From positions 38,377-74,369 of the forward strand of contig QPGO01000282.1 of the NCBI GenBank assembly GCA_008632985.1: a DNA stretch of 35,993 nt, given 5' to 3'. The notes below the pieces were generated by a model, which saw nothing but the letters and a program-made list of their open reading frames with translations, ran no database searches and had not been told where the DNA came from. The DNA comes from Psammoneis japonica (taxonomy: Eukaryota). Shown here one piece after another: positions 7,365-33,120 of the stretch (within the stretch, counting starts at the first letter, position 1; each line of letters opens with the position of its first letter). The position numbers were made by a program, and so were the translations under genes.

Positions 7365-7382
7365 GGACGATGCAGGCCATGC

Positions 7383-7786: not shown

Positions 7787-8610
7787 AAGAAGGACTTGCG
7801 AGTGGCTTGACGGCGTCTGGCCCACACTTGATGTCCCCCCCAAGAGTTCCCGCACGTTGCGCCGGTCAAGGTTGGGTTTTGGCTTTGTCCAATTCTGCTT
7901 GCAACAAAGGACCAACAGGACGAGAACCAATGCTTTACATCCGAAAAGATGTGCCCCGAGGACTGTGGCCGAGACTTCCGTAACATCAAGTTCGACAAGG
8001 ACGTTGACTAGAAGTCGGCGATCCGCTCGACATCTTCCCTCTGCTCAGCGGACTATGACGAACGTGCCGTCGTCAACATTCACGCTTGGGAAATGGATGG
8101 AGACGTTTCTCTCGTCTGTCTCTTTGCCAGTGCTCTTGATCTGTTCGGAAGCCAAGCACTCACTTCATGCAGCAGTTTGCAACCTTTGAGACCGATCCAG
8201 AACAACGCAAGACAATGTTGGATCCGAGCTTTTTTGCTAGAAAGAAGCAAAGGCTAACGGCAACAGGTGCGGGTGCAATTTCACTGCTTCGATTCGAGAC
8301 GGCGCGTCCTCCTCTGCCAACCCTTCTCGCGATGATTCCATTGAACAAACCGCATGCCTGCTCTGTTGCCAGTTCGCCATCCGCTGGCAAGGATTGCATC
8401 AAGCTCTGCATGTTGATCGACACTTGGTGCGCGGACGGCATGATTTGTCCAAAAAACAAAACCAACGTGATAGAAAGGATCGCAGATGACGATCGCAGTT
8501 CTAGCTTGGTTTTGAGACAGCGGTGGGACGACGGCGAAGCGTCATCGCCAGACCGCCAGATTCAAATCTGCTTCGCCACTGGCTGGCTGGAGGGTGGAGT
8601 GGCACTGCAC

Positions 8611-8842
8611 TGTTCCAACGCTTTCACTTCGACTCATTGTGTGGCTAAATGTTTCGATTCAATGATTAAAATTTCAAAAGATGCCGACGAAACATCAAAA
8701 GTGCCTGAAAATTTCAAAAGATGCCGGAGTTCAACGCACACACCTGTTCCAACGCTTTCACTGCGACTCATTGTATGGCTAAATATTTCGATTCAAGAAG
8801 ATGCCGACAAAACATCAAAAGAGTGCCTGAATAGAAAATTTC
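8611..8842 (+). repeat. Direct repeat, ~100 bp x2 (8611-8715 and 8745-8842)
   Basis: Both copies begin tgttccaacgctttcact and contain agatgccgac.aaacatcaaaag. Confidence 0.9.
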
Positions 8843-9170
8843 GAAATCCGCCGTACACACGCTGTATGTCTGTCTGTCTGTCTGTCTGTACATAAACGTA
8901 AACAGAAAGCACAAAAACCCAAACGCCAAAGCAGTGAAAGGATGCGAGAATGCGATGCGGGATGCGGCGGAAGCGGAAGGAGCTTGTGCGTGAAGTAGAG
9001 TATCCAAGAGCAAAAAAGGGTTGATGCGAGTGTGCTAGTAGTCTAATAGCAACCTCCTTATTACCTTTAGAACTACACCAGTGATCTTGTTGACCCATAT
9101 CGATTGTTCTTCATTCTGATTGGGTTCAAATTTGTGAAAAAATCCCGCATCCAACGAAAGATACAGAAGA

Positions 9171-10281
9171 ATGAGCGTCAGCCACGAAGCGAAAACGAGC
9201 ATGAATGACGAGGACGAGAAAGCGGTCCTTGCTATTTTGAAAGCTGCCAAAAAGTCCGATATTATGGATCTCGATACGTGTACCAAGATGGATAAAAAGA
9301 CGGGTCGAGTGACGGAACTCAGTCTGGGTCGATGCAAAGAACTGTCGGAGATTCCTGCCGAGTTGGAGACATTGACGGAGCTCGAGCATCTCAACCTTCG
9401 AATGTGCACCAGCCTGAAAACGTTACCACCGCAATTATCAAAGCTGGCAAAACTGAAACGATTGGATCTTCCGGGATGTAAAAATCTACAAACGATACCC
9501 AGTGAGGTGGGACAGCTGTCGGAACTTGTAGAGTTGGATCTGGGTGGTTGCGCGAAACTCGAAGAACTTCCACGCGAGATTGGAATGCTGCATAGACTGG
9601 AGAAACTGAACTTGTCGCGTTGTCGAAGCTTGACAGGACTACCCTCAGAAATCGGGGCTCTTGAGAATTTAAAAGAGCTTGATCTAGGAGGCTGCACCAA
9701 GGTCAAGTCGTTACCACCCGAGATTGGCCAACTGAGCAAGCTAACGAGCCTTTCTCTTTGAGTTGCACACAACTCACCTTGTTGCCTCTAGAGATTGGTC
9801 AATTGTCGTCTCTCTCTACCCTTCAGTTGGATGGGTGCGAACAACTGAAAATGCTTCCCAGCAGCATTTCCAACCTGTCGGAACTCAAATCCCTGAGTCT
9901 CAATCTTTGTACGCAACTCAAAGCTCTTCCGACGTATATTGGCGAGCTATCCAAGTTAGCGATACTGGACCTTCGAGGGTATGAATGAAATCGATACCAA
10001 GGAGATTGACACTGACAATTCAAGAAGCTTGACCTCATTACTGTCAGTTGATCGGTCCTCCGAAGTGGAGGGTGGGGTCAGTTGGCAGAATGTAGGAATA
10101 TCTGGACCTTCGAGGGTGCATCGAATTGAAATCGATACCCAAGGAGATTGGACAACTGACCAATCTCAAGAAGCTTGACCTCAGTTACTGTCAGTTGATC
10201 CGGTCTCTACCAAAAGAAGTGGAGGGGCTCAAAGGTTGCAATATTATAATTGTTGGCACCTACATGTCTCCAGATGCATGA
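9171..10281 (+). CDS. Intracellular leucine-rich repeat protein (24-aa LxxLxLxxCxxLxxLPxEIGxL repeats), frameshifted in this assembly
   Basis: Regular LRRs in ORFs 9171-9761 and 9758-9988, joined by a 1-nt shift at ~9760. A deletion-riddled stretch follows (~9980-10100), then clean 'LDLRGCIELKSIPKEIGQLTNLKKLDLSYCQLIRSLPKEV...PDA' ending at TGA 10279-10281. Confidence 0.85.
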
Positions 10282-11840
10282 ATAGTAGTGTTTACATATC
10301 TCTAGTAGAGTTTCCTCGCAAAGCAACAACGCTTGGAGGCTTGCCATGAGGCTAAAGTGTGAATACACGTAACTACTGTATCCGGATTCTCCGCGCGTTA
10401 GCCCAACATGCCATACGGGATCACTATATATATAATATTTTGGACATCATTTGAATTTTCGAGAAGAGTTGCCGACAAACTAAATGTGGGTTCTTTGCAT
10501 CCGCACCAACTTCTCGAGTAAAATACGAAAAGCAGCATCTCACGTTTGGAGTTTTCGATTTCTTTGGAGCTCACACTGTATGTCCGCTATGCTTGGTGTA
10601 GGTTCGTTGTTTTAAAGACAACGTTAATCACAACATGGAAACTATCTAAACCAAGTAGCGATTCGCTACAGCACTTAGCATCGGGCCGAGCAAGCGAAAA
10701 CCGACCCTGGCGTGTGCTTGTGCAGAAGGCGAAGGTGCAAGCAGCAATTGATGAGAAACGTGCGGCGCGAAAGAGGAAGAGCACGACAGAAAGGGTAAAA
10801 AAATCCAAGAAAGAGCTCAAAGAAGAGAGGGAATCATACATATAGTGTCTAAGCAAGATAGAGATGTCTTTTAGCTGCGGCAACAACGCCATGGTGTGTT
10901 TTCATGCATCATGCATCGTGGATCTTCGAGATCGGGGCGCGCGCTCGTTTTGCAGTGACGTTTTGAGGTTTTGTAGTGACGCAGTACTTAGGGCTTATAC
11001 AAGTCCAGTTTTTCAAATGACGTTGTTCATATCAAAATATATATGGATATAAATTTAAAATTAATAAAAATAATGAGTTAGCCGGGGTAGGGCTAGTTGG
11101 TCGCGCACGTTTGGGTTCGATGCAGCCGTGCAACTAGCCATACCCTGCAGGAAGAGCTGTTGGTGGCGCGCGAGCAGAAGCAACAAAGCAAAGAACACGG
11201 CGTGGGTCAAAACGTTGTAAAATGACGCAACAACAAGCAGCGAGAAGAAACCCAACTTGACCCATGAATACAGCGCATACATATTGTCCAACCACTTCAA
11301 TAGTATCTCGTATTCCCAGCTTGTAGATGAGGGGACGGCGTTCGCGTTTCTCGCCATGGTGTTGTTGTGCGTTATCGTGTTGTTTGCGCGCGAAGACCAC
11401 GGGATCTATTTATCCGATAATAACTCTGTTTTGGTAATAGTAGATGTTTTACTGTATTCAATCTGAGAATATTTTGAGAAGCGCTTCGGGGCGACCCTGT
11501 TCGCACCGTTAAATAGAAATTTTTTTTATCCAGATTCCAGAGTTCTTTCGGGGTGTTCTGTCAGACTTTTGAATTGGTATATACATATATTAGAGGCCTT
11601 AGCAAAATCAATGATATGTAATAGCCTCAGAGACCAACATAAATTTATGTTCCATGTAGACCACGTAGATTGTGTACCGGCGGAAAATCCACGGCATGTC
11701 AATCACTCAGTAGTAATTCTACGTATATCCTACTTACACCTCACACACGTACACACACCTACACAGTCTAATAACCGCGCACACGTGCGCGAGAAAAAAG
11801 TCCAACACACACAACACACCCGCCCCCCGCCGCAACAACC

Positions 11841-12527
11841 ATGGCGACTGACACTCCTGCTGACGCTGCTCCTGAAGAGTCGTCATGGGTATTGAAATCC
11901 TTGAAAGAGAATCCTCCGCCAGACGCGTTAGCAGTAGGATGGATCTTACGACAGAGCCGATCTATGCCGGGAACGTACTACTACTACCATCAAGAAACGG
12001 GATACAGCCAGTGGGACCCTCCGCTAGATCAGCCAAAAGAAGAAGAACATGCTCCTCAAGAGATTGCAGTAAAATCAGTTGATAAAGAAACAAAGAAAAG
12101 ACAAGAAACTCGCGTTGCAGCGCAAGAAGAACAGCCTCCGCCGAAGCGCTCCAAACCGACAAAGCATCAGCCGAAAGAAGTTCGCGTCTTGCACTTGCTC
12201 AAGAAACACAGGGGCTCTCGTCGACCCGCGTCATGGCGAAATCCCAAAATTACCAGCACCAAAGAAGAGTCAACGGCGGAATTAGAAGAGTTGGCTGCCA
12301 TTTTAAAGGAATCACAAACGCCTGAAGAAACAAGAGCGACCTTTGAAGAGCTTGCCCGAACCGAGTCGGATTGCAGCTCGGCGAAACGGGGTGGCGATTT
12401 GGGATTTTTTGGTAGAAAGAAAATGCAACCCGCCTTTGAGAAGGCAGCGTTTGATTTGGAAATTGGGGAGTTGAGTGGTATTGTGGAAACATCGAGTGGG
12501 GTGCATATTTTGCTGAGAATTGGATAA
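11841..12527 (+). CDS. PIN1: Pin1/Ess1-type parvulin peptidyl-prolyl cis-trans isomerase with N-terminal WW domain
   Basis: WW domain 'GWILRQSRSMPGTYYYYHQETGYSQWDPP'. Phosphate-binding loop 'HLLKKHRGSRRPASWR'. PPIase motifs 'ESDCSSAKRGGDLGFFGRKKMQPAFEKAAF' and 'VETSSGVHILLR'. Intact 228-aa ORF with an accATGG start context. Confidence 0.97.
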   Translation: MATDTPADAAPEESSWVLKSLKENPPPDALAVGWILRQSRSMPGTYYYYHQETGYSQWDPPLDQPKEEEHAPQEIAVKSVDKETKKRQETRVAAQEEQPPPKRSKPTKHQPKEVRVLHLLKKHRGSRRPASWRNPKITSTKEESTAELEELAAILKESQTPEETRATFEELARTESDCSSAKRGGDLGFFGRKKMQPAFEKAAFDLEIGELSGIVETSSGVHILLRIG

Positions 12528-13764
12528 GCGAAGAAGACAGTCGTTCTTGTTGAATAAGAAAGTATGACAGGAACGCTACTCTAGAGGTCCATGGCGTGGG
12601 GAAAGCCCATTGTGTGGCTGTGCACACATACAGTATCTATAATTTTGTTCCCATAAACAAGTAGTGAAATACTTTTCATCGGAGGTTTCTAGCTCGTGGA
12701 TTAGTCACCTCAAGGACATTGTCTACTCTAGCAAGCTCTACGAGGTATGCTTTGAAGCATTCTCGAAGTAGTCAGTCTCAACACAACGCAGCCGCTCTGC
12801 GCTCCTTCGCATTGTCGACGGGTGGTCCAGCAGTGTATCATCATGAGAGAACTGGACGCGATGCAGAGGATATGTTGTCTTGGGCTGTCCGAAAGAGCCA
12901 ACTACCTCATTTACCTACTACAGATCAGAGGATATTGTTGGATTGGCCGGAAAATGCAGATAGATGATTTAATGCCTGACGTAGCCCTTGTCGTCCACCA
13001 TAAACTGAAGGATTGCCGAGGCTTCATCATGGTCAATAGCCCCAACCCCTTCATGAGATCGTCGACTTCGTTGTTGCGGGAGCAGCAATGACGTGGGCAT
13101 TGTCAACTTTGAATGTAACTTTTCCTTGGTTATTCGCCAGCGTCGTCACCGAGACCATCTTCCGAATCATCGTCACTGTGATCCCGCAACGTTCGATTCA
13201 GATGGAACTCCCCAGCCGCAATCACGACACAGCCTCGGTATCGTCTTGATGATTCACCATAGTCGTTACTTTGTTACGTGATTATGTATGCTTCACCAAG
13301 ACAAATCATCGAGCAGATACAGCAGTGATGATTCCAGTTCCTTCCTCCTTCGTTTCAATTTGCCCATCGCACACCAAATTTGAAGCAAAAAGTTGCTTTC
13401 CTATCCGCAAACCTCATCGTTGCCTCGATACAAAATGAGTTTATTTCGACAGCATCCTCTTGAGACGCTGTGCTGTTGTCCAATCATCAACTCAATGGAG
13501 AATATGGATGTTTATCCGCGGCATCATGGCTCATGGCGATCATCCAACAACTCGGAGGTGGTACGGTATGAAATCGTACGCATTTTCCCGTAGCATCCAA
13601 TAAACAATATTAAGATACAGTTATAAGATAAAAAATTCGAACCGTTTTCATAGGAGAAAAATTCAATGAACTTATTTCAAGGCTTTGGAGTTACATACGA
13701 AAATCGCCAGCCGTCATTTCTTACATTAATTTTTAACCATTAATTTTTTATATTCATTAGACGC

Positions 13765-13836
13765 TACGGGGAATTCAACGCAATTCTCGGTATGGTATGC
13801 CACGGGGAATTCTACGTAATTCTCAGTATGGTATGT
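13765..13836 (+). repeat. 36-bp tandem repeat x2 at the left edge of the TpA-free block
   Basis: tacggggaattcaacgcaattctcggtatggtatgc (13765-13800) followed by cacggggaattctacgtaattctcagtatggtatgt (13801-13836). Confidence 0.9.
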
Positions 13837-14680
13837 GACGGCATGATGTCGTCATCATGATGTCATGACGCCATGCAGAAGTAAGTGCACCAGGGCCCTA
13901 ACTAACTGTGCCGTACAGCCAAAATTCTACCCAAGAAGTGTCATGCACGCATTGTGTTGAAATGCTTTTTCAGTTCTTCTCTTTGCATTGCCCTTTTGTT
14001 GCTCTGGCTCATGTTCATTTTGTCCCAAGCAACATTTTGTCATTGCAGAGCAACAGTTTTTGCAGTGCACAGCAACGGCCAAAAAACGGGCAGCTTCATT
14101 TTCGTCAGAGCAACATTTTCCATTTGGCGCAAAAACATTTTCATCTCTCCGCTTTTGCTGTCCCTCCTTGTTTCTCCCCATGTGATTTTTGCATGGGTTC
14201 GATGCCCATGTCAATGATTTGCTGTGATCCTGTCTGTCTTCACGTGTTTTTCTGTGTGTCGTGTCCTTTGCGGGGGATCAGCTCAACACAGAAAGCTCCC
14301 AGCTCAAAGATCCGTTGATGAATTTGTCAAATTGGCTCACAAAAATTGATGCTCTTGTTCACCCTGCATGATGGTGCACCTGATCAGGAGTTCAACCATC
14401 CACTGAATCCCCGCCGGTTGTTTTTCAGCACAGTGGTCTCCCCCCTGTTTGGCACCTCCTTCCTCCGCAGCACACCATGGTGAGCTCTGCTCCTCTCCAT
14501 CATCTTCGTTGACATGGGTCTGTGACAACAGAGTCTGGTTGTCCTTGGAAGAAGGGTGCAAGCTGCAGATGGTCTGTGAGCGATGGAAAAAAAAACTGTT
14601 GCTTCCAAAAGCACAACTTTTCCCTCCACCCATCCATCTGATTTGGAGCGGCTTGATGGTTTTGTTGTGGCAACTTTCAG

Positions 14681-16900
14681 ATGTTCATCAACCCCATGTC
14701 TGCTCATGCAATCAAGCACTGCAGAAGCAGGGTCCACTCTGGCAAGTCCTTGGAGGATCTCAACACTGAGCTTGAAGCAGACAAGAAGCCTTGGAGACTT
14801 TGTGCTTCTCCCAGGTTTGCTTTCTCTGTTTTCCCAGCTGCTGAGGAGAATTGTGAGATGTGGTGCAAGAAGTTGTGGTGCTTTTTTTCAATGGTTGGCA
14901 ATTGTGACTCCATGGTCATGCTGTTGCCTCACCCACCAGCTGGCTCAAAGTGCAAAACTGTTGCGCACCGCCCCCTTCAGCATTTTGCGGTGCATTGCTG
15001 CCAGGCCTTCAATCAACCATTGAAGTCTTCCTTTGTTGACTCTGTTGCCTCTGACCCTGTTTTGGACATCCACGGCAACAACATCAGATGTGAAGGTTGC
15101 ATCAACAATGCCAAGGGATTTGCCAACATTTGTGCCACCTTGACAAATTCTTGGTGGCAAGCTTGGGACAAATGGCAGCTGCAGAGAGCAGCGTCAAGAC
15201 TGTTTGCAGTTGCTTCATGTGCAAGGGTTGCATTTTGCACCAGTTCATGCCACAATGTTGGAGCACAGGTCTTCCCACAATGACCACACAGCACAAAGAC
15301 CTTGTGAGGTGGGTTGAGCAACAAAACACAGCCAGCGGCTGTCAACCAAAGTCAAAGTCGCCTTTGTTTCCTTCAGACCTTTGGGACATTCATGCCTGCA
15401 TGATTTCCAAAACTGCACCTGGTGGGCTCAATGATTTTGCCAGGTGCACTCAGGTGTTGGCTGCCATCCATGTTGCAGCCAGGTTTGATGGTTGCCAAGA
15501 CATTCATGTGGTGGAAGACTTTGGTTTGTTGCACAAAGACTGGATGATTGAAGAAGCTCCCTTTTTCATTGCCAACATTGCTTTGAGAGTGAAGGAAAAG
15601 ACAGATGGTGACTGGCTTCACTGCATGATCAAGTTCAAGGATGAGACTCCCCAGCTCTGTTTCCTCAGGCATTTGTTGGTGCACGTTCATGTGCCAGGTG
15701 CAAAGGAAGGCTGCATCTTTCCCTCTTCTGCAGACTTGGCAGCACTGTCCATGGCGCTGGCGCGTTGACTCTCAGTCTGAATGCAATCCTGTGTGCCCTG
15801 TTCCTGCCACGTGTGTGTCCATCTCTCGCTGGCTTGTGGAGAGACTTGAGGAAAACTGCAAAAGAGGTGACAAAGCTGATGTTGGCTGCCGCTCTCTCAG
15901 GCACACCTTTTGCACGTTTTCAGTTCTTGGAGGGTGGGAGGAGAGGACATTGAACAAAAGGAGTGCGTGCCACAGGGATTGGGAAACCTCTGAGAAGCAC
16001 ATGAAGAATTGCACAAGCGCTGCAGAGGACATGATGAAAGATCCTGTTCCAAGGAAAAGGAGCAAGATCTGGAAATTCCAAGATGTGAAAATTGAAAGAA
16101 GAGCACAAAGCAGGAGCAGGCTCAACAGCATGATGCCTCGCTCATGTTTCAAAGCACTTTGTTGAATGAGGTGCTTCTTGTGATGCCAGATGACCCAAAC
16201 TGCAAGAACCCCCGGCAACTTTTGCAAAAGAGCAGCTGCTCCATGACCTTGGCCAGTCACTCTTTGGATGAACAATTGCACAGCTCTTCTGCAGCAATTG
16301 GTTGTCTGACATGCACCCTGCTGTGTGGAGCTTCAAAACTTGGTGCACAGCATGGTTGAAAAATTGTCTCATCCAGTTTGTTCTTCAATGTGGGCTGCTC
16401 CATTTGCAGCCATGCTGGGCACAATTTCTCCACAGATTCCACTTGTTGGTCACTCTGTTGCTCCACCTCTTGCCAATTTTTTGCTGAGTCTCCAGCCCTC
16501 TTTTGTTCCCACCCAACTGTTTGCACATGTTGCCACCAACAACACAGACCGCTGTTTTTTTCTCTGTGACTTGGGGAGTGCTTGTGGGCTGGACAAGGAG
16601 AAGGTGGCCAAGTTCAAGAATCTTGGCTTCCACAAACAGGCCATGCAGCTTGAGGCTCTTGCAATGGACATTGTGCAGGTGGGGTCATCTAACCCAGCCA
16701 AGAGGCCACAAACTGTGGACACTGATTTGTTTGTCAGGGCGCACAAGATGGGAAGGAAGAAGCTGTTGTCTGATCCCAAAACCAGAAGCTGGCTCAGCCA
16801 CAACCATTTGAGATTTTTCAACTGTTTTGTTTGGTGCCACCACCTTTCCATTGAAAGCCTCATCGGATCGCACACCTGTGCCACAGGCAGCAAGTTTCAT
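14681..16900 (+). pseudogene. Crypton-type (CryptonS-like) tyrosine recombinase, inactivated
   Basis: N-terminal 'LWCFFSMVGNCDSMVMLLPHPP...PVLDIHGNNIRCEG' and 'GCILHQFMP..STGLP...SPLFPSDL'. Catalytic-domain motifs in order: 'AARFD' (R, 15481), 'VKEKTD' (K), 'LCFLRHLLV', 'GCIFP', 'GCRSLRHTF' (HxxR box), 'SACH...SEKHM' (H...Y box, Tyr position = CAC 15998-16000). Several frameshifts. Confidence 0.82.
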
Positions 16901-17240
16901 CATGACTCATGCAACGCCAGGTCTCAATCATCTGCACCACAATCTGTGTTGCTGGCCCAGATGCTGCAGTTTTTTCCTTGACCTTTGGCCAAAATCTGTG
17001 CTTTCCATTCAACCATCTTAGCCCTCAAATGCTGCACACATCATTTCTTTGGCACAGCGGATGAGCAGTTGTTGCTTTGATGCAGCCCCTTTTCCCACTG
17101 ACATTGTTGTTGGTGTTTTCGTGGCCGCCACACTGGCAGAGAAGAAAAGGGATGTGCAAGTGCAAAGTTTTCTTGAGATGGACATTGGTGACTCCATTGG
17201 CTCCCAGGTGAGCCATGGCAAGAACCATGGAAGGGCATTG

Positions 17241-17890
17241 GAAGACCATTCTTGTGTCAACTCAGCCACTTGTGGCTCTTAGATTGTGCAGGATTCAGCC
17301 ACGAATGCCCAGCTGTTGAACAATGGGAAGTGCTTTTGGAACAGTGCAGCTGCAAAGTTGCACTGTGATGGAATTGGGTGACTGCCTTGGGTCCAGGGGA
17401 AGTCAGCAAAAACCACCAGCGGGCAAGGGAAGAACATTCTTGTGCAGACGTGACCAGTTGTTGCTCTGAGATTGCAGAACTCAGAGCTGACAACCCTGGT
17501 TTTGAATGGCAGGAAGTGATTGTGCAGCAGGGCAGCTGCAAAGTTGAACATTGGCAGATCCATTGTGTTGCTGGGGAGTCAGCAAGAAGCATGGGCAGGC
17601 ATTGGAAGACCATTCTTGTGCCAACACAGCTGCGTGTCACTCTGAGATTGCAGGATTCACCCAAGACAACCTGGCTGTCAAACCATGGGATGTGAGTTTG
17701 GAGCTGTGCAAGTGCAAAGTTGTCTTTTGATGGACTTGGGTGACTGATCAGAGTCCCAGGGGAGCTGGCAACACAACCACCAATGGGTGCTGGAAGACCA
17801 TTTTTGTGCAACCACAGCTGCTTGTTGCTCTGAGATTGCAGGGTTCAGCACAGACAACCCAGCTGTTGAATGGTGGGACAACTTGCTTTT
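17241..17890. repeat. Four diverged tandem units of ~175-190 bp (probable relic of a repeat protein)
   Basis: The anchor gaaga(c/a)catt(c/t)ttgtg...ctct(g/t)agattg recurs at ~17241, 17430, 17605 and 17793. Confidence 0.85.
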
Positions 17891-18783
17891 GGAAAAGGGA
17901 AAGCAAAGAGTCAATTTGTGATGGATGTGGGCATCTCTGCTGAGTCTCCAGGGGGGGGGGGGGTGGCAACAAGCATGGAGGGAAGCTGAGTGACCATTGC
18001 GGCAACTGTCTCATTTTCTGAGTGACTCTGTCACATTGGTCCCTTGCAGAAAGTGCGAGCCAACAGCTTGCCAGTGACAGTCATGGGTCAAGGCATTGAA
18101 ATGACATGAAGGTGCCCACACAATTGCAGATGTGGACAATGAAAGGGAGACAGACAATGAGTGGGAGGCAGACATGAATGATCATTGGCAGAAAAGGCAA
18201 GAAAAATGTGCAACTCTGCACGGACGCATGAACTGCAGAAACAAACATCAACAAATGAAGATGACATTAAATTTGTGTGCCCAATTGTGGGAAAGCAACT
18301 GTTGCCTGTGAGCCCTTGTCATTGCAGTCATCATGGGAACTCTCTGTGCAGTCTTTGCCATGACAAACAAAGCCCACACAAACTTGCATCAATTCCATGT
18401 TTCTTGCACTTTTCAGGTGATCATTGAGGCTTTCCAGGTGCTCCGACGCTGACTCTGCAATGGAGAACTTGGGGTGAACTTCCTCTCCACCAGAGTGCAC
18501 GACAGAGAGGTGATGCACAAACAACATTTCTTTCTTGTCTCCCAGCAAGTCATCCTCAGAAATCTCCTCATTGTCACTTTTCAGAGTGCCACAAAGAACC
18601 CCCATTGGGTGCAGGAGCCTTTCCTCCACCACGAGGCCAAATCTGTCAACCCACAGACCCTTTTCATCAAAAAGGGTCTCATCAAATTTGCAACAACTGC
18701 TGCATCTCTGTTTGTCTCAACTGTCTGCTGAGAATTTTTGGCCAAACATGTTGCGCTGATTGACTCGAACAATTTGTCAACAT

Positions 18784-19203
18784 GCAGCATGCATGCAGAC
18801 AAAAGGTCATTTTGTCACGCCCTTTGTGACATTCAAAGGCTGCAACACGTCGCCGTGGTGCACCAACTCTTGTCAGCAGCTGTGTGTTGCACTCCTCCCC
18901 ATGCATCACGCGTCCATGCGGCTCTTTGCCAACGTGTGCTGACACTGCACGGTTTTGGCGGAACAGTGTGGGCACGTGCGAAGGAACACATCGACAGTGA
19001 TCAATGTTGCTGCAGACAACTCCCACTCAGGGTTTCGAACCCCTGGCCTCCTGCCCAATGGTCACACGATGAACCACTCCGCTGTGAATTCACAACGCAG
19101 CATGCATGCAGACAAAAGGTCATTTTGTCACGCCCTTTGTGACATTTAAAGGCTGCGACACGTCGCCGTGATGCGTTGGCTCTTGTCAGCAGCTGCACGT
19201 TGC
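18784..19203. repeat. Direct repeat, ~107 bp x2 (18784-18890 and 19097-19203)
   Basis: gcagcatgcatgcagacaaaaggtcattttgtcacgccctttgtgacatt is identical in both copies; the remainder differs by transitions. Confidence 0.92.
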
Positions 19204-22200
19204 AAACAACCCAATTGCAGTTTTCCAAGCACCCCAGATTTGCTTGCAACACTTCGTTCCAGAGGTGCTCACCAAAACTGCCTTTTGTGGAGACAAACAT
19301 GTTTGCAGCTGCAAGACTGAAATGTTCCAGCACAAAATTGGGCCCTTTGGAAAATGGCTTGTTGGCTTTTGCACCAAGGGTGACTTCCAGGTTGTCTGTC
19401 ACCCCTTTGAACCCTTCAAGAACCATCTTGCAGTGACGCCATTGAGGGGGGGAGTCTCTCACAGGACCCAAGCATTGCATGGTCAGCGAATTGTCAAAAG
19501 GCAGCCTGCAAACAATGGAGGAGTTGAAGGCCACATGTTTGGAGCAGTGCTCTGGAAATTCATGCAACCCAACAAACAGCTTTTCAAGAATGGCTTCAGG
19601 GTCATCTTCCAGCTCCTTCTTCATCTGGGCTTCCATTTGAAGGATTTTCCCACCTGGCACGCTTCTTCAATGGCAAATTTTGTTCACAGTTGCCCAGCAG
19701 AACAGAGAGAACACAGTGCTGCAACACAATTGTTGCCTCGCTGTGTGGTTGGAGTCAGTCTTGAACCAGTTTGGGCTGGGATGAATTGAGTTGTCACTCG
19801 CCTTCTTTTGGAGAGATGCAGTGCATGCCAAGGCACTGACTCAGCGCCCCAAAACAAAGTCATTGTTGCAACAAAAAGTGGCAGTCAAACAGCTGAAAAA
19901 AATGAAGGCAGTGGACAACAAAACTTGCGAGTTTTTGCCTTCCAGCAACTGCCAAGAGGTGGGCAAGTGGGGGCACTGGAGGGCCATGCTCAGCTTCCAG
20001 CTGCACATGCCCAACTCCTTGAACCTGAGTGAGGAGCTTGCTCCTCGTGTGCTGGACAAGGACTTGTTAAAAAAAAAAAAAGCTGCTTGAGAGGACAGCC
20101 TGTTTTCCATTTCCATGATTGAGAAATGAGAGATGAGACCCAAGCACTGCCACTTGAAGATTGCTGGTGTGTCTGCTCTTTTTGGGAGACACTCATTGCT
20201 GGTGGAAGGAGAGGATCCAGTCCACAGTTGACACAGCAGGATGATGTGTTCCAGTTTGAGAAATTCATGCAGTCAAGTCATTGCAAGGAATCATGGAAAG
20301 GAAAGTTCAGGTTCATCCCTTCTTCTTTCCTGACTCCCTTCCACAGATTCAGGAGGCTGTTCATCAACAATGATCTTCAGCTTGTTCAGGCAAATGCAAA
20401 CAAGGAGTGCAATTTTTTCAAGGGCACAACCAACCATGGCAGAGAGACCTGCATCATGCAACAGGACAAGTCATGGAGGACAAGCACCCATGGTCATGTG
20501 GACCACATCCCCACATGTGATGCCAGTTGCCACATTGACCATTCAAGCATCAGCGCAAATCAACCATGACAGCTTGTGCATGTTGACAAAGCACCTGCTT
20601 GCATTTTCAGGGTTGCAGGGGAGGATGTGGCCAGAGAGGTGAAGCATGGTGGGGAGAAATTCACAGAGATTTGCAAGAATGCAGAGATCAAGGAGATTCA
20701 GAACCTTGGTTTGAGGTGCCAGATGACCAAGAACCGCGGCTGATGGAGCAACACAAGGCAAGAGATTTGGAGAGGCAAGTCAAGAAACAAGGAAAGCTGA
20801 AATTTGATGAAATGTTGAGTGCTGCTGTGGCGATGCAGCATGTGGTGGGAACAACCATGAAGGAGGGAAAGGAGATGCAGTGAAAATGTGGGGTCAACAA
20901 AGAAGTCAAGTGGTCAGCCCATGCAAAAGTTGGAGATTCTGGCAAGGGAGACAAGTGGGTTGAACCAGCAGAGAGAGTGAAGAGGAGCAGGCACAACTTG
21001 CAAACAGCGGCAAGCAGAGGAGGAGGAGGAGGAGGAGGCTTTGGTTGATTCAACTGAAAAGCTTGCAGCAAGCGACAATGCAGAAGAGGTGGCAGAAGCA
21101 GTTGAAAAGGTGGCTGGGTCCAAAAAAAGTGAGCCAATGCAAAAGCAGAACAGCCAGAAGTCCAGCCACAAAAGTGCAGCCAACAGAAGGAAAAGAGCAA
21201 GAAGAAATTGAACAAAGACAATGACCGAATCACTCAAACAGATTTGTGATCCTGCAAATTGGTTGTGAGCAAAACCCAAGAGAGGAAAAAAGAAACCGGC
21301 GGTCTGTGCTGCAAAGCTTGGAGCAAAGCAACCATGTCAGCCAATGGAAGCATGTTTGTGGTGCTGACAAATTGAGTCCCAAAGGGCCCAGATGCTTGTG
21401 CCATGGCAACAAAGTCAGTTAGAAGGGGGGTGCCACCAGGAACAAAGCCACCTCCACACTCAAACTTGAGCATGAAATCAAAGGAGATCTGGGCAGTGGC
21501 AGAGCAAACTGAATCCATGCAGAGTTGCAGTCTTCCTTGAAAGTGAGGCACAAGCCCCCACAATCTGCGTCCAACATGCCCACCCTGGGAAAAGAAGCAA
21601 GAGCTTTAAACAAAACTTGAGTGGCTTGTTGGGGCAGGCACAAGCTGCCAAGAATCAGCTCAATCTTTTTGCAGAGGGGGTCCACAAGTGACAAATTTTG
21701 AAACCCTCTTAAACACCTCCACAGAGAACATTTCTGTGAAGGGATCACTGGGGGGGATCACTGGGGGGGCATGAACAGGAGATTCAAACACCAACAGCAG
21801 CTGCTCTTGAGGGTCTCTCTGCTGCTGTCCTCCTCTGAGGCATTCTGTCTGCCACAAACAAGTTGGTGGAGGCCAGGTGCAGGACCAAATCTCAAAGGAT
21901 GCACAGAACAACAATTGGAAGAGTCTCCAGAGGTGAAGGCACAATTGACAAGCAGGGTCATCAAACACAGCTGTGGTGGATGGTGCTTCTTGTCCTCAGA
22001 GTGTGGTGCAACAAGTCTGTTTTGGAGCAAAGTGTGCACTGGGGCCACAACTCAACATTTTCTTCATGACACATGTCACATCTGCTTTGCATTGTTGATC
22101 AGCACTGCTTCCACAGCTGCACATTCAAAGGAAATTTTGTAAAAAACAACCACATGCTGCCATGGAAACTTGCGCAAAAATGCGCTGGGGCAGCCCAGGC

Positions 22201-22470
22201 ATTGGAGCTCTGTGTGTGGCCATCTCAACACATGAAAAAGTTGTTGCAAATGTCTTGCAGCATGAGAGCTTTTGTTGCCAGTTCAAAAGAGTTCTCTTTG
22301 TGCAAGACAAGAAAAAAATTCCAATTTGTTGCATCACAGGCTCCCAGTCACCAGTCAACAGCCGCACACAAACAAGCAGAGAAGATTTTGTTGGCACTTT
22401 TTTGCTCATGAGAAGCCAAACCAAAAACTTCACTCCAAAGACAAGAGCGGCCCTTCACATTCTGGGGCAA

Positions 22471-25128
22471 TTGAGAAAGAAAGAGCAGCTGCTTGTTTTG
22501 ATGTGCTCCAGTGTTGGGGAGCTTGTTTTTGTGTCAAAGCATTTGCAAATGCACAAAGACACTGTTCTCTGCTCAACAAAGCCGTTGCACATCAGTGCAA
22601 AAATCACAGTCCATGCAGCAGCTGCCACTCCCAACTGGGAGGTCTGCAAGTGGCACAGAAGAAGGAAAGAGAAGAACTCCCATGGATTGCAACACACTGC
22701 TGTGCTGCACCAGGCCAGCCAGCAAAGCTCAAAAAATTTGTGCCGTGTGTTTTTTTTTTTGTTCCTGGCACAAAACCAAAAAATTCTGCACAGAATTTGT
22801 GCAGCCACCATGGCAAATTTGCATCGCATGAACCGTCATTGTCACCATTTTTCACAAGGCAAGTCACTCAGGATGTTGTTGGCATTTGTCCACAGCGCCA
22901 CTGCACACTGGCACAATTTTGACAAGTGTCGCTCCGTGTGCAAGAATGAGGATTTTAACTCCTTTGGTGTGTGAGCATGCTGCTGTTGTTGCCGTTCCGG
23001 TGTGTTTTGTCAAGTTTGTTGTCACTTCCCTTCTCTCATCCCTTGACCTGTGCATGGCTCATTTCACAATGAATGTGGATGAAAGGCGCTGATGTGTGGG
23101 AGACACCTTTGGAGTGTTTGAGGCAAGCTCTGGACGTTGCGGCTCATGGCTCATGTGTTTTCAATGGATGAAGGGCCCCACACTTTACTTTGTCAAACAT
23201 GTTGATGGTGCAAGCAGCAGTGGATTTCATTCAGATTGTTCTTTTTGCTCTTGTCCTTCCCAAGCTGCAACAACTGGAAAAGAAACATGCCGGGCAATGG
23301 CTGCCATTTGGTGTCCTTGATGTTCTGTGGCAGAGCACTGTGTTGAGCACCGAGCATCCTTGCCACATTGTCGCCATGGGCAAGTGCCATCATGGATCCA
23401 GCGAGATCACACCATCCATGTCACCCCCCATTGAGCCACTGCTTCCCAATGACGGAATGTCCATGGCAAGCCTTGGGGTGCTGACATTGTTCAATGTGCA
23501 ACATTTGCAAACCATCAAGTTCCAAGCATTGCAGCTCTTCATGCAATGTCTGTGTTTCTCTTTTGACCAGCGCATGTGTCATGTCACTGGGTGCTGGCTT
23601 TTGCAAATGACAACATCTCTGTGCATTTCACTCAGTCATTTTTTCTTTTTCTTGCGGTCGCTGTCCTTGGGTTGGCAACTGCATTGGCAAATGCAATCAC
23701 CAAATCTTTTTTCTCTTTTTAAAATGTCTGCTGTCAGAACTGACCATTCTGGTCAGGGCCTTCTTGTGTGTTCGAGTGTTGCTGAATGCTCTTGAACAAG
23801 AAATGTCAGAAAGAAACGGAGGGATTGGGGCCATTCTGAACACCACCACCTTGGACGTCATCAACTCTGGCACATCATCTTGTCCATGCCACTCATGGTG
23901 TTGTGTGGGGTTTTGCTGTGTGCTTTCTCACTGCTGCTGTGGTGGAATTGGCCACTGCTTTTTCAAATTTGCTTGCAGCTCTGATGGTCAGTCTGCATGG
24001 TGGTCTGCCTTGTGGTTTTGCTGGCAAGAACACTGTCACTTGATTTCAAGAAGATTGGTGGCAGAAAGATCACCCCTGTGGGACCTGTTCAGACAAAGCC
24101 AAAGAGTCTTTTTGCTGTCTTTTCATGTGTCTTTTTTAAGACTGGGCTCAGCTCTTTGCTTGTTTTGTCATCTTTCAGACCTCCTTTTGACTTCAATCCT
24201 GCTGTGTCAACTTGTGCCAAGTTTTCTGAACCACCACACTTCACATTGGTGTCAAGAGAGCAAAAGCTCTGAAAGAGACCTTTCTTGTTTCTTCTTCCAT
24301 GTTGTTTTGGATTGGTGGTGAGTGGGCATGTGGCGCTGAATGAACATCAAAAGCATGAAGCAACAAACCTCTTGGTGGGAGCAAACAGGAGACACCTTTT
24401 TGTGGGACTGGGGTGGAGGGCAGATGTTTTGCACCAGGCCAGCATGCAATTTGTGCAAGGCACGCAGAAATCACACAGAAATCTGTCTGTGCACCAGCTA
24501 AAATGTGTTGCGGTCCACGGGAGTGGGTGGCAGCTGCACTCTCAAAAGAACGAGCGGTGCTCTTCATCTTGCCCCTCATGTCATTGATGAGGAAGGTCAC
24601 TCAAGTCAGCCAAAATTGACGCTGTGGAGCAGTTGAAAAAGAAAGAGCAGCTGCTTGTTTTGACATGCTCCAGTGGTGGGGAGCTTGTTTTTTGTCAAAG
24701 CATTTGCAAGTGCGCGAAGACACTGTTCTCCACTGAGCAAAGCAACTCCACATTGGTGCAAAAATCATGGTCCATGTGGTGACAGCCACCTCCTCTCAAA
24801 AGAAAGAGTGGCTCTCATGACCTCACCACTCATGTTTTTGATGAGGGAGGTCACTTGAGTTGGCTGCAGTTGATGCTCTTGTCAGGCATTTGAGAAAAAA
24901 AGCAGCTGCTTGTTTTGACATGCTCCAGTGGTGAGGAGCTTGTTTTTGGGTCAAAACATTTGCAAACACACAAAGACAATGTTCTCTGCTCAACAAAGCA
25001 GTTGCACATTGGCGCGACAACAACGGTCCATGCAGTGACAGCCACACTCTCAAAAGAAAGAGCGCGGCTCTTCACCTCAGCCCTCATGTTGCTGATGAGG
25101 AAGGTCGCTCAAGCTGGCCAAAGTTGAC
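22471..25128. repeat. ~260-bp repeat family: partial copy 22471-22620, partial copy ~24511-24620, full copies ~24633-24864 and ~24890-25128
   Basis: Shared blocks agcagctgcttgttttga, gagcttgttttt, catttgcaa, ctctcaaaagaa and tgatgagg.aggtc. Confidence 0.88.
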
Positions 25129-26643
25129 AGTGCCCCCCCCCCCCCCCCGAGCATGTTGCTGCCAACACACAGCAGCAAGCAGTGGTTGCACAATGTGGTG
25201 GCTCTTTTCAAAAGATGCAGCTGTTCAGAGAGGCAGCTCAAGCCAGGCCAGAGATGCTGCATGGGTGCACATCAGCTCTGTCTGTCAGTGGAAAAAGATT
25301 TTGGCAGAGGCCCAATCTTTGCAAATGTTGTTCGCACTTTCATCTTTGGCAAGGCCACAGCTTGAGAACCTGGAAGAGGCACCCAGAGAAACAGACATGC
25401 TGGTTGGCGCCCACCACCGTGTGGGTGCTTTGTTGGATGTTGTGCAGCCGCAGACCACCGTGCTCACTCCAAGAAGAAGCAAAGCTGGCTTTGAGCTGCT
25501 TGCCACAATGAGAGCTCCTGGCCAGTGTGACATCCTGCTGCCACCCACTTTGGGCCAAAAGAAGAGTTTTGATGGCACCGACATGAGGTGTGCCGATGGC
25601 ACGCATGGCCCAGCTTTGGACCTGCAGGGACAAATGCCCTCCATTTCTGATGCTGAGCACAAAAACATGAAAAGGCAATCTGCAAAAATGCCAGTGCTTG
25701 CCTTCCTGCTGGTCGACCATGAGAGTGCTCCCGCTGGCTTGCCAACCCAAGATCCTGCCGCGCGCGCTGGCATGTCCTTCGCGCATGTGGCAGCACCGCT
25801 CCACCTGGCAAAAACAGCCACAAGGCAACAAGGGCTGAAATCTTAAGCCAGGTTGATGCCAGCACAAAAAAAAACAAAAGTGCGCACATCTGAATGAGCA
25901 TAGCTGCACTGGGGGGCCGGAGACAATTTGAAAGGCTGAAGCTCGCCTGGCAAGGGGGGCCAGGGGCCAAGGAGCAGAGTCGCGCGGCCCGCAGCTGTGC
26001 CAACAAGGGCCGGCACAATGCCAGAGAAAGAATGCTCCAAAGTTTGGTTGAAGTGCAGCATGCAAATGTGAGTCCTTTCAGCACACGTGCAAGACTGCAA
26101 CAAAGAAACAGTGCCAGCCTGAAGCTGTGCTCTTTTGACGATTGATGGCTGCTGGTTTGGCTGGACCGCGAATGTGAGAAACCCCGCACCTGCAATGATG
26201 TGCTGGCCCGACTGCTGCTGTGAACCTGGGTTGGCAGTTTTCCACTGGGCCCCAATTTTCTTTGCCCAGCACTGCTTCTTCCTCTCTCAACTCGACAGCA
26301 TTGTGCTGCGCACCCTCACAACAAGCAGCCGTTCACATTGTGCGTGACTCAGTCATCACGGGCGCGAGTTTCGGTTGCCAACGCGAACATCAAAAAATAC
26401 AGCATCTTGTTCCATAACTATTTATGCCCCTAAACACTCGACAGTTCAAGACACAAGTGCAATTAACCACAAGATAGATTACTAAATAGGACAATGCCTT
26501 TTCGACAGTATAATACGTCTTGTCCACGAATGTCTTTAAGTATTCTCCAGAGAACGGATGAGGGGGAAAAAAGAATCGATACTTTCGCATTCTCGTTTTG
26601 CCTCACACAAAATTAATCGGTTTATCTTTCGACAACGGTTACC

Positions 26644-29202: not shown

Positions 29203-29457
29203 AGTGGCTAGCATCACTCTCCGGGAAACGTGGAACCTTGTTATTGTGTAATTTGGGGCAACGCTACAGGGAGTTCTCATCTCGTGTTGATCGCTGGCTT
29301 TTCAAGATGGCATGAATTGGTCTGACAAAAGATGTATTACAAATGTCGCCATTAAAGTTGTCTTTGACGTTTTGATTCGTTTTTGAAATCAAACGGAGTG
29401 AGTCGTCCTCAGTCGGCATGCGAAGACAGATTACGGAAGGAGGACACTCTGCAGGTG

Positions 29458-30849
29458 ATTGTTTAGTTAACCATTCTGCATAGACATCTCTAGATGGAGT
29501 GTTAGTAATACATAGAGCCCGTTGTATGAATCGCGTGAATATAGACCGAAAAAGTAGTGTAGCGCTCAGCATATCATCCCGCTCCACTATTCGGCAACTG
29601 ACATGGCCAGATTAGTCTGTAACACTCGTTTGTATTCCCTCTCTTCGCCCATTCCACAGTGGTCTATGCCATCATATGGTTTGACTCTTGGCCTTGAACC
29701 TGCGCTCACATCTCGCGTAAACCTTGCCGGTAGCTTCATACTATCACTGATTCAAGCTGTTGTCTTCGTGGCAAAGCAAAGAGCGAGAGCAAATCCTGGC
29801 TTTCATGCAGGAGTGAGCAATATCTATGCGTTTCAGGGCGGGTCAACGCTACAGACGAAGAAAGAGACGTATACGCAACTGTAGCTACACTGATGAAACT
29901 AAATTCCTAATAAAACAACCTCATCATATACCGGTAGTGCATACAAGCTTTTGCTCACTGCTCGGTTCGGAGAAAATCTAAGATGTATCTTACTCACGCT
30001 CTCCGACAATTGCCCCCCCTCCCTGCTGTGACGAAGCTTGTTGCTCGGTCTTCTTTGCGACCCAGGTGGGGACTTTATCGCTGGTGCTGCGCTGGAATAC
30101 AAGTCCCCGTACCGGTGCCTCATTTTTGGTGAGAGAATTATATGTTGAGATATATTGTTTAGTTAGCCATTCTTCATAGAGATCTCTATATGGGGTGTTA
30201 GTAATACATAGAGCCCGTTGTATGAATCGCGTGAATAGACCGAAAAAGTAGTGTAGCGCTCAGCATATCATCCCGCTCCACTATTCGGCAACTGACATGG
30301 CCAAATTAGTCTGTACCACTCGTGTATATTCCTTTTCTTCGCCCATTCCACAGTGGTATATGCCATCATATGGGTTGACTCTTGGCGCTACACCTTGAAC
30401 ATGCGCTCACAGCCCGCGTAAACCGTACCGGTAGCTTCATACTATCACTGATTCCAACTGTTCTCTTCGTAGCAAAGCAAAGAGCGAGAGCTATCCTGGC
30501 TTTCATGCAGGAGTGGACAATATCCATGCGTTTCAGGGTGGGTCAACACTACAGACGATCGCGAAGAAATAGACGTATATGCAACAGTAGCTATACTGAT
30601 GAAACCAAATTCCTAATAAAGTAACCTTACAATACGGCATTCAAGCTTTTGCTCACTGCTCGGTTCGGGGAAAATCTAAGATGTAAGATTCATCTTACTC
30701 ACGCTCTCCGACAATTGGTCCCCCTGCTGTGACGAAGCTTGTTGCTCGGTTTTCTTTGGGACCCAGGTGGGGACTTTATCGCTGGTGCTGCGCTGGAAAA
30801 CATATCCCAGTACCGGTGCCTCATTTGGTGGGAGAAGGTTGAGATATAT
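29458..30849. repeat. Head-to-tail tandem duplication, ~696 bp x2 (29458-30153 and 30154-30849), covering the 3' end and flank of the minus-strand gene
   Basis: Long near-identical blocks, e.g. gtgttagtaatacatagagcccgttgtatgaatcgcgtgaata and gacccaggtggggactttatcgctggtgctgcgctggaa, occur in both units. Confidence 0.95.
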
Positions 30850-31708: not shown

Positions 31709-32311
31709 CTTGGCGACGGTGGAGTGAGGTACTGTAGAGATGAGAGAAAGTGAAAACTCACGAGAAACGAGTGACAGTTGTGTTCGTTCGCGAATTGTGA
31801 GATTGAGTGGATCGCTCACAGCAAACAATAAGTGTTGCAAATGCGCGCGAAAAACAAGAGTCATCGACTTATTTACCACGATCAAAATGTGACAAACAGC
31901 ACTTATGGCATCCATGATCATGAGGTGTACTTAATGATCGCGTTTACAGTACTTAGGGAAACCGACTTCGATAATACAGTCCGGAATGCTAAAAGGGAAA
32001 TGGCCATGACGTCATACCACGACACAAACTTTTTTAGCTCGAAAGAAAGAGGGAAACCGGAAGCCCCTTCCAATTAAGCTTCTCTGACCGCCAGTGACAA
32101 AACAGCACATAGCTTCCCGTGATCGCGTGTAGAGTACTTATTGGAAGGACTTTCGATGGTCCAGTCCGGAATGTGAGTCTCTTCCAAGTACCGAAAAGCT
32201 TTCTTGAATTAAGCTTCTCCGGTCTCACATCTACTTCACACTACTCAAAGCCTCCTTTGCCTTTGCCAATCTTTGAGCATAAGTCGTTCCAAAGTGCAAC
32301 GAGATATTGGG

Positions 32312-32491
32312 TACATCCTTGACCGATGAAAGAAGACTCCAGCTTTCCCTCTTTGCTTTAGCATCGGAATCAACTTGGTTCTCTTCTTCCTTCTCTAACT
32401 ATACATCCTTGACCGATGAAAGAAGACTCCAGCTTTCCCTCTTTGCTTTAGCATCGGAATCAACTTGGTTCTCTTCTTCCTTCTCTAACTA
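32312..32491. repeat. Perfect 90-bp tandem repeat x2
   Basis: 32312-32401 is identical to 32402-32491. Confidence 0.97.
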
Positions 32492-32559
32492 TTCTTTGGC
32501 AGACGTTACACTGTCATATGGCAGTTCATAGAGAGAATCCTACTCGTCTTCGCGAAGAA

Positions 32560-33120
32560 GGAGTTTGACTCCGGTGTGTCGGTACGTTTCTTTCTCGGCA
32601 AAGTCTTGATCCTGCAGCTTGAAGGCCAAGTACGAAACGGGCGACATGAGCGCAAAACAACTTCTATGAGGAAGACTTGGGCATAATTGTAACTGGATCA
32701 CCGGCATTAGCAATACGCAAATGATGCAGTACGTGATTGAGTCTCTTCCAAGTACCGAAACGCTTTCTGGAATGACACGTCCCCGAGCCGAGGTGAAGCG
32801 ACACTGACGCACGTAACAGGAGTAGGAACCGAGGTGTCGCCATCGACGAGCTCAGCCGCAACTTCCATGGAAAGCAAGGTTACCAATGCGGCGCCTAGCA
32901 AATGTCCCGAGCAATACAGCTTAAGCGTCTTGAATCTGTCGTCCTGTTGGAAGAGCTCCTTGGCATGCGTAGGGAATTCGTCGTACTTTGTTTCGCGCCC
33001 TCGGAGGTTCCTCTCGAGAAGATACTCGTCAAACCCATGATGCAGCCATATCTTACTATCCTGTCCCTTGATACCCTTCAAACGATTATCCCACTTGCTA
33101 AAGGAGATGGAAGCACTTTC
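32560..33120 (-). pseudogene. Class 3 lipase (alpha/beta hydrolase) pseudogene fragment
   Basis: 'LHHGFDEYL', 'LYCSGHLLGAAL' (GHSLG with the nucleophile Ser replaced by Leu, TTG at 32901-32899) and 'VTCVSVASPRLGD..FQKAF..LE'. In shifted frames, 'HLRIANAGDPVT' and 'YRHTG'. Confidence 0.85.

Follow-up and report, generated by a model that had tools for sequence, protein, structure and literature searches.

A dead Crypton-like tyrosine recombinase element in a hypermutated tract of a diatom-like genome

The DNA analysed here (the window) is a stretch of 35,993 nucleotides from Psammoneis japonica (assembly GCA_008632985.1, contig QPGO01000282.1, positions 38,377 to 74,369). It is eukaryotic and diatom-like, and between host-type genes it holds a 12.5-kb tract almost free of the dinucleotide TpA, with a tyrosine recombinase (YR) gene just inside the left edge. 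An earlier reading, made from the sequence only, had taken the tract for a possible giant Crypton-like element that carries cargo behind its recombinase. The present analysis favours, with moderate confidence, another composition: a dead, compact Crypton-like element at the left, with an unrelated patchwork of repeats behind it. The result is modest. Its new part, as far as the searched papers go, is a diatom family of large, unannotated recombinases with a predicted Cre fold, in whose elements the gene would be followed by ~185-bp units in tandem. The case also corrects an over-reading, since the borders of the tract are a product of mutation and long open frames inside it are cheap.

Recombinase relic and its protein family

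The recombinase gene (Table 1) is nearly full length and interrupted by at least three frame changes. With a related protein of 918 amino acids (P0001) as query, tblastn aligned residues 65-545 colinearly on 14669-15109, 15217-15738 and 15785-16138 (summed E 7e-42). A profile of the 11-member family recovered four pieces of the window (110, 147, 60 and 23 bits; the fourth at 16310-16978), together covering profile positions 72-818 of 827. The start of the relic is extrapolated from the profile and lies ~0.53 kb into the tract; the gene points inward as the sequence-only reading had described, whose figure of 0.8 kb refers to the first matched residue.

A word-index search with the frame 15094-15768 retrieved three proteins, including P0001 and a hypothetical protein of Nitzschia inconspicua, and a second search yielded the family of 11 members, 546-922 amino acids long, from diatom genomes and metagenomes. 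Intact family genes are present in N. inconspicua (IV203_004652 and IV203_010862). No Pfam domain is carried by any of the 11, and none matches Phage_integrase, DUF3504, NDC10_II or DUF3435 at E<=1. Searches of Pfam and PDB sequences with candidate YR frames gave no recombinase match, and the same holds for PDB sequences compared with the two main YR frames, P0001 and the family profile. Viral contigs scanned with P0001 and the family alignment contained no relative. By sequence the family stands apart from the curated YR families.

Its members are nevertheless tyrosine recombinases, as judged from their catalytic residues, a predicted Cre-like two-domain fold and their neighbours in a protein atlas. 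The catalytic set R-K-H-R-H/W-Y is present in order in the family alignment: R330, K367, H464 and R489-H490 are invariant, Y499 is nearly so, and most of the 11 proteins have Arg at position 467. An AlphaFold model of P0001 built on this alignment has a moderate predicted local distance difference test score of 67, with most of the core at 70-93. Foldseek placed Cre first among the matches to this model (3crx_A, E 8.9e-5, probability 1.00, 322 columns, TM by target 0.44), followed by Ndc10, XerH, lambda Int and XerD. In the atlas feature search, residues 280-520 of P0001 fall near 'Integrase', Phage_integrase and NDC10_II clusters with scores of 0.96-0.98.

Conserved cysteines are found in two clusters of P0001, one at C234, C237 and C249 (residues 223-249), where weak TRASH-like Pfam matches occur (E 0.002-0.008), and the other at C883, C910 and C913. 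This arrangement suggests two small metal-binding modules on either side of the recombinase core.

The window copy of the gene was killed by hypermutation. At the 17 alignment columns with a consensus Tyr it has no Tyr at all, reading Cys (TGY, where Y is a pyrimidine) in eight and His (CAC) in three, which brings TGY or CAC to 11 of 17; in the strongly conserved Tyr columns all six read Cys or His. The catalytic Tyr is CAC, the conserved Arg preceding the catalytic His is TGC, and the first catalytic His is CGC. With three residues of the catalytic set mutated, the copy is dead. The relic is in effect a protein-level read-out of the hypermutation, in which conserved Tyr codons have turned into Cys or His codons.

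The recombinase is the only enzyme of the element. Pfam was scanned with 123 stop-to-stop open reading frames (ORFs) of at least 70 amino acids and with 78 six-frame read-through chunks of 300 amino acids over 18.1-26.2 kb, and neither set contained a reverse transcriptase (RT), RNase H or DDE domain; the family proteins have none either. The description of a Crypton-like YR gene near the left edge, pointing inward and unaccompanied by RT or DDE, was right. A YR retrotransposon of the DIRS/Ngaro type was considered and rejected, as no reverse transcriptase or RNase H was found beside the YR in the ORFs or the chunks.

Array behind the gene and extent of the element

A tandem array begins ~0.2 kb 3' of the gene relic, with units of 190, 186, 176, 188 and 188 bases. 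When metagenome contigs were scanned with the family alignment, 19 related loci emerged, of which five hold the C-terminal end of the gene (L002, L003, L004, L009 and L016). All of the five but one have a tandem array with a period of 183-194, located 0.2-1.3 kb past the gene end (Table 1); the exception, L016, is a broken copy with no array in its 452 downstream bases. Another array, of period 186, in L012 (7851-8190) was not counted, being located within another open frame and outside the block common to the copies.

Because the array follows the gene both in the window and in four of the five related loci, the element is probably ~3.6-4.2 kb long. Gene and ~185-bp array together represent the architecture of the family, and the preferred reading as a whole is judged fairly probable. 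It is a more tentative idea, put at somewhat short of an even chance, that the array could be a functional module of an undescribed clade of diatom YR transposons and a source of satellite DNA.

The relatives also speak for mobility, which in Cryptons is recognised when several copies have a block in common but stand at different sites. Such copies occur at three independent insertion sites of a distant lineage (L007/8, L011/12 and L018/19), and their common block is at most 2.65 kb (L012 3270-5915). Compared with L012 3448-5915, L018 9082-10157 and L019 9734-10809 represent an internally deleted copy (~1.4 kb), which is likely a non-autonomous derivative at a site of its own.

The array could alternatively belong to an island older than the element, that is, a silenced cluster of repeats with a gene fragment, at whose edge the YR element was inserted. 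Unrelated tandem arrays (periods ~230, 340, 195, 254 and 700) are present in the island and elsewhere in the window and are common in the genome, and the array units in the window have no common sequence with those of the related loci, as this explanation would have it. The recurrence of a period of 183-194 at a similar distance past the stop in four of five informative relatives, from different samples and lineages, is however unlikely to be due to chance, and the older island is considered improbable.

Several points weigh against the preferred reading of a compact element with its own array, in addition to those concerning the tract, the open frames and the depth that are given below. The arrays of the different loci have neither a common sequence nor common k-mers above controls, in raw or in purine/pyrimidine coding, and it is place and period that link array and element. 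Three of the four arrays reach contig ends, and DNA past the array is seen only in L009 (645 bases). The distant L012 lineage has no adjacent array. Finally, neither termini nor target repeats nor an empty site came to light, and the limits of the element are inferred from its relatives. Cryptons lack long terminal or inverted repeats and end in short direct repeats (4-6 bp) that correspond to the target; here, 12-28 kb contains no inverted repeats of 25 nt or more, and the gene is not flanked by long direct repeats.

According to the preferred reading, the tract would be a repeat island between host-type genes whose parts arrived first and which was then rewritten by TpA-to-TpG/CpA and CpG-to-TpG/CpA mutation. 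The left third, from ~14.0-14.5 to ~18.07 kb, would be a single copy, now dead, of a compact Crypton-like DNA transposon, made up of one intronless gene for a tyrosine recombinase of ~830-920 amino acids and, ~0.2 kb further on, the tandem array of ~185-bp units. If it behaved as Cryptons do, the recombinase of a live copy would excise that copy as a circle and join it again to the DNA at a short target of matching sequence. The array might supply repeated binding or recombination sites, or might keep a site available through unequal exchange. The other 8 kb would not have been carried by the recombinase; it would be a patchwork of an abundant short repeat, moderately repeated segments including the duplicated dead copy of a palmitoyltransferase gene described below, an array of 254-bp units and single-copy mutated DNA.

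Hypermutated tract and its edges

From 14.0 to 26.0 kb the observed/expected ratio of TpA is 0.00-0.09 per 500 bp. That of CpG in the tract is 0.03-0.53 per 500 bp, and those of TG and CA are 1.5-2.1. Dense TA positions stop at 13928 and resume at 26398, with 17 TA in the 12.5 kb between, and the element ends of 13835 and 26360 proposed by the sequence-only reading therefore trace the mutation tract, not the ends of an element. The right end of the tract has a G+C content of ~0.56 up to ~26.0 kb.

A second TpA-free, CpG-poor tract lies at window 1-3 kb (TA observed/expected 0.00-0.03) and has no Pfam match. At 3-9 kb TpA is partly depleted while CpG is near normal, in a zone that takes in the reductase-like flavodoxin/FAD-binding gene. 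Since the loss of TpA at 3-9 kb also spans host-type genes, tract borders need not be element borders, and in this genome the sharp borders of TpA-free tracts are a mark of the mutation process and not transposon ends. Set against this is the form of the tract itself, which is unbroken and sharp-edged and starts only ~0.5 kb 5' of the recombinase gene; a single inserted block would look alike.

Just outside the left border of the tract is a G+C-rich, palindrome-like stretch with repeated ATGATGTC/GACATCAT-type words (13838-13880), adjoined by a 36-bp tandem repeat at 13766-13835.

DNA behind the recombinase element

When the whole window was compared with the 19 related loci by tblastx (E<=1e-4), only the YR gene was recovered (14762-16945), besides a few short, weak pieces that BLAST's sum statistics attached to the gene hits; most of the loci are short, so that this comparison is weak for distant flanks. 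Similarly, the tract in purine/pyrimidine coding, which suits hypermutation because its changes are all transitions, matched the 1-3 kb tract and the flanks of the loci only in the YR gene (15585-16045 against L001) and in internal arrays. The sequence-only reading had named, as what would speak against it, other copies of the YR that share only ~3 kb, with downstream segments from unrelated repeat families or host loci. This was found in part: the related loci share only the YR gene with the window, and the three sites of the distant lineage share at most 2.65 kb with one another.

In 18.1-26.2 kb Pfam recognised DHHC, on the plus strand, and no other family. The supposed cargo contains one relic of this palmitoyltransferase type, matched by Pfam and, among PDB sequences, by ZDHHC9. 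An earlier scan with six whole-frame read-throughs (~4,166 amino acids) had returned nothing from Pfam, DHHC included, and this insensitive design was replaced by the 300-residue chunks. In the relic, which probably reaches to ~24.3 kb, both halves of the Cys-rich domain are kept, the DHHC tetrad is lost, 87 extra bases separate the halves and the frame is broken. A contig from the same sample joins 23558 to 23661 via 15 letters, which, translated by eye in register with the window codons on either side, give Ser-Lys-Phe-Asp-His-His, followed by Cys-Pro-Trp. As this contig reads Asp-His-His-Cys, an intact DHHC relative exists in the sample, and the window holds a degenerate duplicate; judged from its sequence, the window copy is a pseudogene.

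Two further observations concern this relic. Sequencing run X2 covers mainly genic parts of the window and, patchily, 22.7-24.7 kb around the relic, leaving most of the TpA-free tract uncovered; one of its contigs (window 23481-23900) has an intact DHHC motif and unmutated flanking letters. The run behaves like a transcript set, though labelled 'DNA?', and the parts of the tract that it leaves uncovered were given no weight as evidence. In addition, CGC (Arg) stands for a conserved His at 15886-15888, the first catalytic His of the recombinase, and at 23659-23661, the second His of the DHHC motif. Both are A-to-G changes outside the TpA context, and with only two cases this may be chance.

The protein-like relics that the sequence-only reading had listed behind the recombinase fared poorly. 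The minus-strand frame at 18267-18632 belongs to no Pfam family, and a search with 18270-18716 found no relative among longer proteins. For the one at 19200-19660, also on the minus strand, a search with 19004-19666 gave no match at E<=0.001 among 1.84 billion representatives. A plus-strand relic at 19800-21250 is weakly founded, the sole ORF tested there (20123-20566, plus) having an atlas score of 0.77, which is meaningless and no lead. Where a minus-strand relic had been placed at 23050-23800, the recognisable one is the DHHC copy, on the plus strand. Frames were ranked by a codon-bias scan trained on ORFs mutated in silico, a weak discriminator that missed one of the four known YR pieces and serves for ranking only.

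Long ORFs are cheap in the tract because only TGA stops frames in TpA-free DNA; the longest (303 amino acids) was reached in 12% of 200 dinucleotide shuffles. A surplus remains in the number of ORFs of at least 200 amino acids, nine against 2.1 +/- 1.3 expected. This hints at more coding relics than have been identified, and some unrecognised ones may remain in the tract.

Three internal repeat families, on the other hand, are present as described earlier: the ~185-bp array, a pair of ~120-bp cores, and a 254-bp array with a solo unit (Table 1). The solo unit is 95% identical in purine/pyrimidine coding to 24619-24803 and 24892-25049 (61-84% in raw letters). In the abundant short repeat (window 18760-19385) one copy ends in a minus-strand stretch that resembles a tRNA T-arm. 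A tRNA-derived short interspersed element was considered for this repeat at 18.7-19.3 kb and rejected, ARAGORN and Rfam giving no match.

The right-hand 8 kb could also be the remnant of another large foreign insertion, for example an integrated virus or virus-like element. Its mutation signature matches that of integrated viral DNA in Bigelowiella, as far as the accessible text of the preprint (bioRxiv 10.64898/2026.01.13.699255) describes it, and several open frames have no relatives. However, neither the 123 ORFs nor the 78 chunks contained any viral family, be it of capsid, polymerase, packaging, integrase or another type, and the content is mostly short repeats and a copy of a host-type gene. 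A foreign insertion is regarded as highly improbable.

Copy structure across the tract

Copy structure was examined by summed depth, counted over contigs at least 80% alike from one public sample that holds the stretch. It is 40-78 over 12.0-14.67, 15.3-18.67 and 24.7-26.7 kb and is raised in the intervening segments (Table 1). At the tract ends (13.3-14.7 and 24.7-26.7 kb) it is 39-68; both are thus close to single-copy depth and lack the appearance of shared termini. Among the longest pieces listed, contigs matching perfectly (depth 29-38; the contig placement uses a filter that drops some records) cover 12874-14806, 15116-17963, 19168-20179, 20463-21460, 21830-22652, 23238-24078 and 25133-26350. 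The gaps among these pieces, at ~14.8-15.1, 18.0-19.2, 20.2-20.5, 21.5-21.8, 22.65-23.24 and 24.08-25.13 kb, coincide with the bins of raised summed depth. No joint linking ~13.9 to ~26.4 kb, as an empty site would give, is among the 15 of 67 joints inspected from one sample. In its depth profile the tract resembles a patchwork and not a unit with ends common to its copies, with the caveat that summed depth is not a copy number and that hypermutated copies may fall under 80%, hiding old colinear copies.

Within the recombinase gene, one sample contig skips 576 bases (14872-15449), and the bin 14669-15335 has a raised depth of 178, no other part of the element being raised in this sample. Further, partly deleted copies of the 5' part of the element are probably present in the genome.

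These data bear directly on the idea of a single recombinase-captained, Starship-like element spanning 13.9-26.4 kb, with ~8 kb of cargo (the DHHC copy and repeats) and killed as a unit. If true, stramenopiles would have an equivalent of the fungal Starships, and the whole element would have been recognised as a unit and erased by TpA/CpG hypermutation. The inward-pointing recombinase by one edge, the unbroken, sharp-edged tract between host-type genes, the host-derived gene copy inside it and the surplus of long ORFs would all suit such an element. Its sister or non-autonomous copies, however, should share ends, whereas the ends are near single-copy and the inner parts are repeated from 3-fold to more than 1000-fold. 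Neither is the joint expected of an empty site among those inspected. The relatives are compact, or consist of gene plus array; nothing in 17-26.4 kb matches the flanks of the 19 related loci; tract edges need not be element edges, TpA depletion at 3-9 kb spanning host-type genes as well; and DUF3435, to which Starship captains belong, is matched at E<=1 by none of the 11 proteins. With tract-type edges, sharing confined to the gene, compact relatives, uneven depth and DHHC as the sole identifiable cargo, the recombinase is very unlikely to be the captain of a 12.5-kb cargo element. The alternative that the sequence-only reading itself had allowed, simply nested relics, fits better.

Features of the tract and its surroundings

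The coordinates of the features are collected in Table 1. An abundant repeat at window 10667-12000 (summed contig depth ~4,500) lies just upstream of and extends into the parvulin/WW gene, and many contig joints and loose ends occur at ~11.26-11.80 kb. More tandem duplications are found outside the tract, at 5336-5830, 6703-7386, 7352-7737, 29433-30841 and 32311-32492 (periods ~230, 340, 195, 700 and 90), with 91-100% identity in purine/pyrimidine coding; some are within the zone of the flavodoxin/FAD gene. No RusA gene was matched by Pfam in the window ORFs or in the read-through chunks of 18.1-26.2 kb.

Table 1. Features of the window, summed depth along it, and arrays in related loci. Positions are those of the window unless a locus is named.
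Feature	Position	Strand	Evidence or remark
Flavodoxin/FAD-binding gene	6947-8892		host-type
Leucine-rich repeat (LRR) gene	9138-9758		host-type
Parvulin (peptidyl-prolyl isomerase, PPIase)/WW gene	11775-12524		Pfam
TpA-free, CpG-poor hypermutated tract	13929-26397	none	dinucleotide counts
Dead tyrosine recombinase gene	14456-16940	+	tblastn, family profile
Tandem array, ~176-190-bp units, four clear and one degenerate; proposed 3' module	17145-18072	+	repeat comparison
Open frame without homologue	18267-18716	-	best codon-bias score in tract (0.20 per codon); no Pfam family
Two copies of very abundant short repeat, ~120-bp cores 18782-18900 and 19095-19215	18782-19215	none	repeat comparison, depth
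Open frame, 221 amino acids, without detectable relative	19001-19666	-	codon score 0.07-0.13
Solo unit of 254-bp repeat family	22457-22642	+	compared with 24619-24803 and 24892-25049
Dead DHHC-type palmitoyltransferase gene copy	23473-23796	+	ZDHHC9 8hf3_A E 7e-8; Pfam DHHC 29.7 bits (cut-off 28.7)
Tandem array of 254-bp units, ~2.4 copies	24507-25133	+	repeat comparison
Mutated right end of tract, overlapping open frames on both strands, without homologue	25134-26397	none	depth 39-47, single-copy level
Class-3 lipase gene	32710-33615		host-type
Summed depth 178	14.67-15.3 kb
Summed depth 48,500	18.67-19.34 kb		bin 18671-19337
Summed depth 130-190	20-22 kb
Summed depth 450-620	22-23.3 kb
Summed depth 140-320	23.3-24.7 kb
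Array in L003	200 bases past gene to contig end		period 183
Array in L004	~205 bases past gene to contig end		period 183-186
Array in L002	~600 bases past gene to contig end		period 190-194
Array in L009	~1.3 kb past gene		period 188

Comparison with known systems

Fungal Starships place a YR gene first and pointing inward, and the window resembles them in this respect. DUF3435, the YR family of their captains, is unmatched here; the host is a diatom, not a fungus, and the relatives are compact. Unlike the case of Starships, nothing found here indicates joint movement of the gene and the DNA behind it.

The mutation process has a close counterpart in the TpA hypermutation of integrated viral DNA in Bigelowiella natans (Mettrop et al. 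2026 preprint, bioRxiv 10.64898/2026.01.13.699255). As far as the accessible text shows, the signature is the same TpA-restricted change of A:T to G:C, which accounts for the tract and for the death of the gene here. Two points differ: CpG is depleted here too, and the DNA affected is an island of repeats with a transposon, in a diatom-like genome.

Cre of phage P1 (structures such as 3crx) is the best structural match to the modelled protein over both domains and has the same catalytic residues. Identity is only ~9-10%, with no sequence or profile match, and the diatom protein is almost three times longer, with a long extension at its C-terminus and clustered cysteines at C234, C237 and C249.

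Among Cryptons, CryptonF-1_cRei of Chlamydomonas was the first seen moving (Lopez-Cortegano et al. 2023, PMC9977147). It comes from another host and is classed as CryptonF, and the accessible part of that paper describes no array. NDC10_II is matched by none of the 11 family members at E<=1 and appears only as an atlas lead (0.96).

CryptonS elements are described from oomycetes and Phaeodactylum (Kojima and Jurka 2011, PMC3212892). According to the accessible text of that paper their terminal direct repeats are 5-6 bp long, mostly TATGG; repeats of this type are unreadable here, as the element ends are undefined and TpA is erased. The same text mentions no downstream tandem array, and here there is no C48 peptidase partner. 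More broadly, a downstream array was found described for Cryptons neither in the accessible text of PMC3212892 and PMC9977147 nor in full-text literature searches, which is a weak negative; likewise, the searched full texts contain no description of a diatom family of large Cre-fold recombinases with an array, a point on which Repbase entries could bear. As described in the accessible text, CryptonS and the present element share a stramenopile host, a DNA element of a few kb and a single large YR protein without RT or GCR1_C domain. In both, a conserved region lies C-terminal to the catalytic domain; in the present family it includes the conserved C883, C910 and C913. The element is Crypton-like and is set beside CryptonS by description. 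An array that belonged to the mobile unit would be structurally unusual among Crypton-type elements and might seed satellite DNA.

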